Positions 27,168 to 28,238 of a stretch of DNA of 64,000 bases are shown here, one piece after another. The notes under the pieces were generated by a model. The model searched no databases. It saw nothing but the letters and a program-made list of their open reading frames with translations, and was not told the DNA's origin. Position 1 is the first letter of the stretch; every line of letters begins with the position of its first letter. The translations under genes were made by a program, and so were the position numbers. Origin of the DNA: an uncultured Clostridia bacterium (GTDB taxonomy: Bacteria > Bacillota > Clostridia > TANB77 > CAG-508); the NCBI GenBank assembly GCA_963931155.1, contig OZ006978.1, positions 131,357-195,356 on the forward strand, given 5' to 3'.

Positions 27168-27539
27168 TTAACTTATATATCCTATTTTATTGTGTATTTC
27201 TTTATGACAATTAGAACAAACTAAAATACATTTTAATGCCTCGGCTTTATATTCTTTCCAAGACATAGTATTCCCAGACCCTAGTTTAAATTCTTTAACT
27301 GAGGGATCTTTATGGTGAAATTCTAATGCATCAATACATCGATTGTATCCACAAATAGAACACTTACCTCCTAATAGCTTTACTGCTTGAAGTTTCATGC
27401 TTCTCCTTAAAATTGTTTTTTGATGTTTTCTACTAGTGTTATCTAATCTAGATGAATCACCACTACATTCAAAACAGTAAATACGAGAATATGAATTTGA
27501 ATTAAATTTTTTTCCGCATATTTCACAATATTTAATCAT
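27168..27539 (-). CDS. HNH endonuclease (small zinc-finger HNH nuclease), free-standing next to intron-containing tRNA
   Basis: CxxC...CxxC zinc knuckles, LGGKCSICGY...ALEFHHKDP...CSNCHKEIH HNH motif; start at ATG 27537-27539 with GGAGAAATATT SD. The track's longer 5' extension runs through the terminator and into tRNA 3' exon and is rejected. Confidence 0.75.
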   Translation of the reverse strand: MIKYCEICGKKFNSNSYSRIYCFECSGDSSRLDNTSRKHQKTILRRSMKLQAVKLLGGKCSICGYNRCIDALEFHHKDPSVKEFKLGSGNTMSWKEYKAEALKCILVCSNCHKEIHNKIGYIS

Positions 27540-27552
27540 AATATTTCTCCTA

Positions 27553-27586
27553 TGAAAAAAAACAAGAGAATTGCTTCGTCTTGTTT
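27553..27586 (-). terminator. rho-independent terminator of rRNA/tRNA operon
   Basis: AACAAGA...TCTTGTT stem followed by U7-8 on the minus transcript, immediately 3' of tRNA-Asn. Confidence 0.65.
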
Positions 27587-27594
27587 CTTCATTT

Positions 27595-27904
27595 TGGCTC
27601 CTCATGTTGGACTCGAACCAACGACCTATCGGTTACTGCACTACACTAATTTTCACTAGCATTATATATAATATAATTTGTAGTCTGGACTTTCTCTTTA
27701 CCATATCAGTTATGACTTAGGCAGGTGGTGTAAAGTCTCTACACATAGCTTTCGCCTTGCTCGGTATTACCATCAGCATTACCTGTTACGGCTTTCACCG
27801 AATTAGCCACCTTTTCATCTATAAGTTTCCTTATAGAGCTGCTAACTTCTTGGTTTTTCAACCTGCTCGACAGCCGAGCGCTCTACCAACTGAGCTAATG
27901 AGGA
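27595..27904 (-). tRNA. tRNA-Asn(GUU) interrupted by a 234-nt group I intron in the anticodon loop (exons 27870-27904 and 27595-27635, CCA encoded)
   Basis: Exons join to TCCTCATTAGCTCAGTTGGTAGAGCGCTCGGCTGTTAACCGATAGGTCGTTGGTTCGAGTCCAACATGAGGAGCCA, a perfect cloverleaf apart from a C27-U43 mismatch, anticodon GUU. Confidence 0.8.
27636..27869 (-). mobile_element. group I intron (self-splicing ribozyme candidate, tRNA-intron IC3-like)
   Basis: Follows U35 of exon 1 and ends in G (omega-G). Internal guide 5'-GUUAGCAGCU pairs with exon-1 end GGCUGU (P1, G.U at splice site) and exon-2 start UAAC (P10). Core blocks AAUUCGGUGAAAGCC, ACCGAGCAAGG, GUGUAGAGACUUUACACCACCUGCCUAAG, GGUAAAGAGAAAGUCC resemble Azoarcus/Anabaena tRNA introns as recalled. 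Confidence 0.7.
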
Positions 27905-27910
27905 ATATAA

Positions 27911-28026
27911 ACTGGCGACAACCTATTTTCTCAGCAGGGTAACCCACAAATATCGTCGGCACATTGGAGCTTGACTTCTGTGTTCGGGATGGGAACAGGT
28001 ATTTCCTCCATGTCATAATCACCAGA
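27911..28026 (-). rRNA. rrf: 5S ribosomal RNA
   Basis: TCTGGTG...CGCCAGT helix I, CCCGAACAC and internal conserved blocks. Confidence 0.9.
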
Positions 28027-28238
28027 AAATTTATTTCAATACAAACTACAATAACTTCTTAAAGTAATTTGTATGAATTTACTTGTTTGTTTGTATATTG
28101 TGTGCTTCTTTTTTTGTACTCTCTTAGTATAATACTTTTTGTTTTCTTTTTCAAGTACTTTTACTAAATTTTTTTTACTTTTTTAGCACACTCAAAAATA
28201 CATAGAGAATATCTTTTCGGTTCTTCTTTATTTTTTGT

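Follow-up and report, generated by a model that had tools for sequence, protein, structure and literature searches.

The known types of intron-split bacterial tRNA increased from 4 to 21 with the survey of Williams (2020; bioRxiv 10.1101/2020.01.27.920355), which, as cited by Nakagawa et al., catalogues introns lying between positions 35 and 36 of tRNA-Asn as 'Asn.4Ug'. Introns at this site self-splice in vitro when taken from Patescibacteria, and a survey of 4,934 complete genomes counted 28 of them (Nakagawa et al., mSystems 2026; PMC13011429). Patescibacteria contributed 19, Cyanobacteriota and Nitrospirota three each, and Bacillota_A, Bipolaricaulota, and Pseudomonadota one each. Because endonuclease genes were sought only within introns longer than 500 bp, the same study is silent on genes located just outside the tRNA. 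Here, we analyze a 64-kb stretch of DNA from an uncultured Clostridia bacterium (contig OZ006978.1; hereafter the window), in which a tRNA-Asn(GUU) gene is split by a 234-nt insert and followed by a small gene for an HNH nuclease. This insert, located between U35 and U36, is a group I ribozyme intron with the architecture of subgroup IC3. The first-pass annotation of the window had treated it as without a known tRNA-Asn counterpart in a Clostridium-like Firmicute, a claim of novelty that fails because tRNA-Asn 35/36 introns have been published, including a homologous one from Bacillota_A (Clostridia), GCA_022846035.1. The intron is thus a further member of a published and experimentally validated class and no discovery; the new point is the HNH gene just downstream, which looks like its mobility partner.

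A Group I Intron between U35 and U36 of tRNA-Asn

The split gene reads 5' to 3' on the minus strand, at the end of an rRNA operon (table 1). Joined in silico, the two exons were recognized by ARAGORN as a 76-nt tRNA-Asn(GTT) that has an acceptor stem of 7 bp, regular D and T arms, G73, and an encoded CCA, and they are approximately 100% tRNA-Asn-like, G73 included; a C/U mismatch is present at the first pair of the anticodon stem. The junction expected from joining the exons reads ...CUGUUAACC.... The first-pass annotation had the tRNA halves, their stems, the length of the insert, and all coordinates right, leaving only the strand unstated, and its placing of the insertion after anticodon U35, directly 3' of the 5S rRNA, agrees with ARAGORN on the joined exons and with the Rfam 5S match. 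Two long contigs reproduce the arrangement with 100% identity, and three short-read contigs of other samples do so with 98.6–98.9%. Because the same arrangement and insertion point recur in these contigs and in at least 44 other genome loci, the split gene is neither a chance resemblance nor an assembly artefact. One contig identical to the window is tig00014637 of ENA ERZ21549406.

Standard tools miss or misname such a gene. ARAGORN with default settings called no tRNA-Asn in the raw window, and in intron mode it reported at the locus a tRNA-Phe(aaa) with a 218-nt intron at 33/34, a poor model; similar errors have been published for split tRNA-Asn genes, many of which are annotated as tRNA-Thr(UGU). 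Other exon boundaries, either for a Thr(UGU) intron at 33/34 or for a tRNA-Phe(AAA), would accord with these calls. We nevertheless regard them as hardly credible, as the ARAGORN model requires a mostly mismatched anticodon stem and the 35/36 position alone provides a U before the intron and a G at its end, besides being the one specified by P1 and P10. In contrast to many published cases, the 35/36 boundary is here unambiguous, because a shift by 2 nt gives an intron ending in C. Since the split gene escapes standard tools, ARAGORN for the tRNA and the default Rfam scan for the intron, such genomes would be scored as devoid of tRNA-Asn.

The structure of the intron, from P1 to P10, was drawn by hand. 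It contains the pairings of the internal guide sequence that the first-pass annotation had proposed, with GGCUGU at the end of exon 1 (P1, U·G at the splice site) and with UAAC at the start of exon 2 (P10). Thermodynamic folding alone recovered most peripheral helices (minimum free energy −61.3 kcal/mol, z = −2.8).

We examined the structure in two alignments. The first (A2) consists of seven close relatives from metagenome-assembled genomes (MAGs) of gut Clostridia type, 82–89% identical across the locus. In A2, 98.3% of cells are paired and 17 pairs show two-sided changes, against 6.5 in shuffles (none of 500 reached 17) and 1–3 in slid controls. The U·G pair at the splice site, the terminal G, P1, and P10 are invariant across the seven relatives. 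Because the core helices are themselves invariant in A2, its support comes from the P1 hairpin, P2, P5, P8, and P9. The second (A5) is an unfitted MAFFT alignment of 13 sequences, which adds a relative from a viral contig and six introns of the Nakagawa supplement, among them the Nostoc tRNA-Leu and Patescibacteria tRNA-Asn introns that have been spliced in vitro. Here, 89.2% of cells are paired and compensatory changes affect 33 of 54 pairs (0/500 shuffles), with a covariation score of 0.434 compared with at most 0.114 for slid partners. P7 is paired in all 13 sequences (100%), with one exchange of U-A for A-U. The splice-site pair is U·G in 12 of the 13 introns, and the remaining P1 pairs covary with the host exon, P1 and P10 following the exon sequence across other host tRNAs. 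Compensatory changes relative to published introns back P1–P9 and the P3/P7 pseudoknot. They agree with the identification of the insert as a group I intron in the first-pass annotation, and the likeness that it saw to cyanobacterial tRNA-Leu introns is borne out by an alignment that includes Nostoc. A third alignment (A3) was made with a model (R1) built on the seven close sequences, a narrow model that matches IC3-like but not IA-like tRNA-Asn introns. A3, composed of distant matches, has 78% of cells paired, and a slide of +2 is nearly as good on some measures; because it is partly out of register, we gave it little weight and relied upon A2 and A5.

The Rfam model itself gave a borderline answer. 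The full model RF00028 (positions 1–253) matched the 701-nt region 27400–28100 with 38.6 bits and an E-value of 2.9e−8, which passes the acceptance level of published surveys (at least 18–20 bits, or E < 1e−4), but falls below the curated gathering score of 50, and no intron was listed in the default scan. The covariance-model hit, whose absence the first-pass annotation would have taken as contrary evidence, thus exists over the full length of the model, only not at the gathering score. Other Rfam families gave chance-level matches only on the insert at E-values up to 10. That the insert could be a different kind of element, whether an insertion sequence, a miniature transposon, a group II intron, or an intron of archaeal type spliced by proteins, or else an assembly chimera, is close to untenable: we found no point in its support, the largest open reading frame (ORF) inside the insert encodes 40 aa, long-read and short-read contigs assembled independently show identical junctions, and the covariation and homology data exclude it.

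A less extreme doubt concerns activity. The insert might be a dead group I relic and the locus a tRNA pseudogene, with an intron-less tRNA-Asn gene elsewhere serving the cell. The RF00028 score below gathering would fit a relic, and only 64 kb of the genome are visible, holding no other tRNA-Asn gene. We consider this very improbable, because every catalytic element is intact and the variable helices stay paired through compensatory changes, and because relatives as divergent as those of A2 have kept the splice-site U·G pair, the final G, and P10 unchanged. Anatomy, homology, and covariation establish the insert as a group I intron, and by analogy with its experimentally studied homologs it would be expected to splice in this organism.

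Table 1. Coordinates of the rRNA Operon, the Split tRNA-Asn Gene, the Intron Elements, and the HNH Gene (window numbering)
Feature	Position	Strand	Remarks
16S rRNA	33344-31795	-	Rfam
tRNA-Ala	31587-31514	-	Rfam
23S rRNA	31121-28237	-	Rfam
5S rRNA	28026-27910	-	Rfam; split tRNA begins 5 nt farther on
tRNA-Asn exon 1 (positions 1-35)	27904-27870	-	35 nt, TCCTCATTAGCTCAGTTGGTAGAGCGCTCGGCTGT; ends ...GGCUGU
P1, 5' strand	27875-27870	-	GGCUGU, final 6 nt of exon 1
Group I intron	27869-27636	-	234 nt; begins CGAGCAGG; 3' end GUGCAG
P1-loop hairpin	27852-27863	-	GGUU-GAAA-AACC; 3/4 pairs with compensatory changes
Internal guide sequence	27837-27846	-	GUUAGCAGCU; P1 and P10 strands
P10, guide strand	27846-27843	-	GUUA; pairs with UAAC of exon 2
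P1, 3' strand	27842-27837	-	GCAGCU; pairs with GGCUGU of exon 1, U35·G at splice site
P2	27819-27836	-	7 bp, GAAA tetraloop; 7/7 pairs covary in A5
P3	27812-27807 with 27728-27723	-	5/6 pairs changed on both sides
P4	27801-27796 with 27766-27761	-	enclosed by P3
P5/P5a	27791-27770	-	enclosed by P3
P6/P6a	27760-27743	-	GAAA loop; enclosed by P3
P7, 5' strand	27737-27733	-	GACUU; UUA alone between P7 and P3'
P8	27701-27721	-	motif CCUAAG...UAUGG; direct reading, pairs counted in alignments
P7, 3' strand	27688-27692	-	AAGUC; pairs with GACUU; pseudoknot with P3 holding the guanosine-binding G-C pair
P9.0 and P9	27639-27687	-	three-way junction: AU-rich P9a hairpin, GAAA-capped P9b
Terminal G (ωG)	27636	-	
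tRNA-Asn exon 2 (U36 to encoded CCA)	27635-27595	-	41 nt, TAACCGATAGGTCGTTGGTTCGAGTCCAACATGAGGAGCCA; UAACCG...GAGGAGCCA
P10, exon 2 part	27635-27632	-	UAAC; pairs with guide sequence
AT-rich hairpin	27555-27586	-	AACAAGA...UCUUGUU, then U8; between tRNA and HNH gene; read from sequence
HNH nuclease gene	27168-27539	-	123 aa; 56 nt past tRNA CCA; AGGAG ribosome-binding site

Subgroup and Nearest Relatives of the Intron

The intron has the IC3 architecture, without extra helices and with compact P5 and P9. The distance from P7 to P7' is 47 nt, within the range of the IC3 references (36–50 nt) and shorter than in the IA reference (67 nt), and the alignment shows that the IA-specific P7.1/P7.2 insertion is absent between P7 and P3', where J7/3 is reduced to UUA. 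Global pairwise identity was also tried as a separator of IC3 from IA introns, and fails (58–67%), whereas the P7-to-P7' spacing separates the two.

To place the intron among its homologs, we used a genome scan with one genome per species, which yielded at least 120 loci; the window's own genome was not among the matches listed. At least 45 split tRNA-Asn genes were collected with the insert after U35, all of them with a U before the insert and all inserts ending in G; approximately 14 have a short IC3-like core and approximately 30 a long IA-like one. Among the matches listed, the hosts belong to Omnitrophota, Planctomycetota, Nitrospirota, Cyanobacteriota, Patescibacteria, Methylomirabilota, Gemmatimonadota, several proteobacterial groups, and Clostridia. 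Contigs binned as Pacearchaeota and Woesearchaeota (L011 and L103) likewise contain split tRNA-Asn genes of bacterial type whose introns have a group I core, and their labels probably reflect mis-binning, as Williams (2020) suspected in a comparable case.

The nearest published entry is the 210-nt intron of GCA_022846035.1 (Bacillota_A), classed as IC3 by subgroup covariance models (Nakagawa et al., table S5). It shares with the window intron the host gene, the insertion point, the flanking U, and the final G, and the guide and core blocks are recognizably homologous (...UUAGCAGC..., GUGUAGAGACUUUACAC, AAAGUCC.GACUACA), although global identity is only about 67% and the P1-loop hairpin differs. 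The alignment also places a single GAAA-capped hairpin in that intron where the window intron has the branched P9a/P9b. The Patescibacteria tRNA-Asn intron of GCA_016700035.1, for which self-splicing in vitro was shown, has the same site, the same 234-nt length, and the same P1/P10 logic, but is classed as IA, and the interval from P7 to P3', which is only UUA in the window intron, is longer there by about 30 nt (P7.1/P7.2). Some Patescibacteria tRNA-Asn introns encode an HNH endonuclease related to the window ORF at the family level.

Other relatives reside in different host tRNAs. The IC3 intron of Nostoc/Anabaena tRNA-Leu(UAA) has the same order of elements (P1-P2-P3-P4-P5-P6-P7-P3'-P8-P7'-P9), lacks P7.1/P7.2 as well, and is nearly identical to the window intron in J8/7-P7' (GGUAAAGAGA.AGUCC), but it is inserted in another tRNA, at 34/35. 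GAAA tetraloops and the CCUAAG/UAUGG motif in P8, which we take to be the 11-nt GAAA-tetraloop receptor, are common to the window intron and the classical IC3 tRNA introns; the likeness to the Azoarcus tRNA-Ile intron that the first-pass annotation named may hold as well. The tRNA-Arg(UCU) 34/35 IC3 introns of Bacillota (Nakagawa et al., table S5, e.g., GCA_001586195.1) differ by their host tRNA, their guide sequence, and a large P6 insertion, while their P5/P5a (CUUAACAG.U.AUGCUGAUGG) and their branched P9 (CAAAUUAUA...GUAGUGAAAACUAUAGUGGUAAG) are both strikingly like the corresponding parts of the window intron. These likenesses in P5/P5a and P9 hint at one ribozyme lineage moving between tRNA genes.

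Outside the Clostridia group, the closest relative of the window intron (85.6 bits) is found in L235 (IMGVR_UViG_3300012979_000043), a phage-like viral contig. It contains a tRNA cluster with two intron-split tRNAs, at 696–1009 and 1984–2252, which are a tRNA-Ser(UGA) with a 224-nt insert and a tRNA-Asn(GUU) interrupted after U35 by 194 nt; the two are separated by an HNH gene that belongs to the window ORF's family.

The HNH Gene Downstream of the Split tRNA

The ORF that follows the split tRNA encodes a member of an HNH family in which 7 of 11 members match the Pfam HNH domain PF01844 (best E-value 2.7e−5). The motifs C..CGY, HH, and C..NCH.E are kept by all 11, and the final H (H116) is present in at least 90%. 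In the PDB, the best match is to the HNH domain found in a group II intron maturase (E-value 2e−4). Closer relatives were found by tblastn within the collected loci: residues 45–120 of the window protein are 45–53% identical (E-values from 1e−19 to 1e−23) to ORFs borne by long tRNA-Asn introns of Saccharibacteria, Planctomycetales (Planctomycetota), Omnitrophica (Omnitrophota), Nitrospira, and one gammaproteobacterium. These intron-borne ORFs start 6–70 nt past the 5' splice site and run into the guide sequence and P2, and therefore sit in the P1 loop. Another situation is found in the metagenome contig L136 (1055–1611), a related IC3-type tRNA-Asn intron with a long-form HNH relative inside its 3' (P9) part; this ORF ends at the last base before the terminal G and aligns to residues 2–116 of the window protein, thus covering the N-terminal CxxC...CxxC region. 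Gene calls on at least 23 metagenome contigs include a protein identical to that of the window. The ratio of nonsynonymous to synonymous substitutions (dN/dS) relative to seven orthologs is 0.05–0.15, with dS saturated.

The arrangement seen in the window recurs. Immediately 3' of the split tRNA, the HNH gene is present in five further Clostridia-type contigs (L016 and L129–L132; 78–82% amino-acid identity), in L016 with a further flank that is not syntenic with the window, and also in another lineage (L192) and in a Paceibacterota MAG (L034). A decayed copy occupies the same place in L070, and HNH pseudogenes were likewise found in L090, L060, L011, and L043. The gene is located just 5' of the split tRNA-Asn in L142, L186, and the viral contig L235, and the intron occurs without an HNH gene in L013, L079, L085, and L117. 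Among the 80 best metagenome loci, the HNH gene is inside a split tRNA-Asn in 10, just 3' of it in 5, and just 5' in 2.

The association extends to tRNA-Asn genes that are not split. In viral loci, the tRNA nearest to the HNH gene is tRNA-Asn in 25 of 59 cases, tRNA-Asn making up 13% of all tRNAs there (p = 3e−8); in metagenome loci, the corresponding figures are 14 of 42 and 11% (p = 1e−4), that is, an approximately three-fold enrichment. It was obtained from the best 160 HNH loci, the most similar to a query built on tRNA-Asn contexts, and therefore covers this sub-family and not all HNH genes. In phage and metagenome loci, an intact tRNA-Asn often starts 0–15 nt past the HNH stop codon.

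From its family, arrangement, selection, association with tRNA-Asn, and precedent, we infer for the window ORF a role as a homing endonuclease with tRNA-Asn genes as its targets; it is probably a free-standing member of a tRNA-Asn-tied family. We hold the explanation as a whole, an intron in tRNA-Asn accompanied by a likely free-standing homing endonuclease, with considerable confidence. Several observations nevertheless weigh against it. For the intron, these are the RF00028 score below the gathering level and the prospect that an intron-less tRNA-Asn gene elsewhere would make the window copy dispensable. For the nuclease, the window protein alone matches PF01844 weakly (E-value 0.017, below the cut-off); the family is very large, the viral and the metagenome collections each yielding more than 570 relatives, and many of these are not beside tRNA-Asn; the gene occurs without a split tRNA in L123, L124, L128, and L133, and next to only the last 15 nt of a tRNA-Asn in L134, which shows that it can exist on its own; and a hairpin with a U-run separates the tRNA from the ORF and clouds the transcription of the latter.

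The size of the family and these solitary copies would suit a different account of the gene, in which the intron is real but the nuclease is unrelated to it, being either a stray phage-type enzyme or one with a defence or restriction function; strong purifying selection, atypical of a purely selfish decaying gene, points the same way. We take this possibility seriously but judge it to be on the unlikely side. The closest non-Clostridia relatives of the protein are encoded within tRNA-Asn introns that share the insertion site, belong to unrelated phyla, and represent both ribozyme classes, and the positions of the gene in the 80 best metagenome loci, together with the three-fold tRNA-Asn enrichment, speak against a fortuitous neighborhood. 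The free-standing HNH gene and the tie of its family to tRNA-Asn genes are the main lead offered by the locus.

The hairpin between the tRNA and the ORF could be, from its sequence, a weak terminator of the rRNA operon. A terminator scan did not count it, its comparison with Rfam gave only a chance-level match to an unrelated plastid 3'-untranslated-region model, and a scan for promoter-like sites found none on the same strand between the tRNA and the ORF.

Strains differ on this side of the operon. L123, L124, and L128 are 99.5% identical to the window on the downstream side of a breakpoint and carry unrelated DNA upstream of window position 27600. The breakpoint, at about 27600, falls at the last 6 nt of the tRNA, and the rRNA operon with the split tRNA is replaced (positions 1–1907 in L123) by DNA containing a 414-aa ORF without a Pfam match and a promoter-like site, together with a conserved stretch, about 85 nt long, whose end reads ...GAGCCA (...ACGAGCCA). 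This stretch, for which searches of Rfam and for tRNAs gave no match, also precedes the orthologous HNH gene of another species in L133 (1300–1400). In L134 (region 1340–1370), the final 15 nt of a tRNA-Asn are all that is left of the tRNA.

Proposed Splicing and Homing

If the intron behaves like its relatives, the pre-tRNA would be transcribed as the 3' end of the rRNA operon transcript, and the intron would fold, its guide sequence (GUUAGCAGCU) forming P1 with the last nucleotides of exon 1 and placing the U35·G wobble at the splice site. A free guanosine held in P7 would then attack after U35; the terminal G at 27636 would next occupy the guanosine site while P10 aligns exon 2, and joining of the exons would yield a normal tRNA-Asn. 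The HNH nuclease, for its part, may cut intron-less tRNA-Asn genes, whose repair would copy the intron and the nuclease gene together, a process known as collaborative homing; the intron would shield its own host gene from the nuclease.

Two phage systems have been described in which homing is collaborative, or in trans: the intron has no ORF of its own, and the endonuclease that acts with it is free-standing (reviewed in PMC3984707). Free-standing nucleases directed at tRNA-Asn also have a precedent in SegB of phage T4, a GIY-YIG endonuclease encoded in a tRNA cluster, with a preferred site inside the tRNA-Asn gene (PMC2330249). As in the collaborative systems, the endonuclease gene of the window lies outside an ORF-less intron, while its family also has intron-borne members. 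The window differs from the phage precedents in being part of a bacterial chromosome, with the tRNA gene in an rRNA operon; it differs from SegB in that the enzyme is of the HNH and not of the GIY-YIG type.

The family occurs in four states: as a separate gene next to an intron-less tRNA-Asn gene, in the tRNA clusters of phages; as a separate gene next to a tRNA-Asn intron that lacks an ORF (the window, L016, L129–L132, L034, L142, L186, and L235); within the P9 region of an intron (L136); and in the P1 loop of both IC3-type and IA-type ribozymes. It is tempting to see in the window the collaborative-homing stage, here in a cellular chromosome, of the route proposed to lead to mobile group I introns, a view that we put forward tentatively and to which we would give slightly less than an even chance. 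If it is true, tRNA-Asn introns would spread by means of a target-specific nuclease that is independent of the ribozyme. Should the HNH enzyme target tRNA-Asn, surveys of intron interiors alone would underestimate the mobility of tRNA introns, phages with tRNA clusters would be likely vehicles, and the tRNA-Asn system would display, as a natural series, the successive steps in the fusion of a nuclease and a ribozyme into a single mobile element.

A duplicated arrangement was observed in L060 (Nitrospira sp. CG24E), where the minus strand carries two copies of tRNA-Asn exon 1 at a distance of 1.6 kb. A truncated HNH ORF comes after the first copy, whereas the second continues into a 256-nt intron and exon 2.

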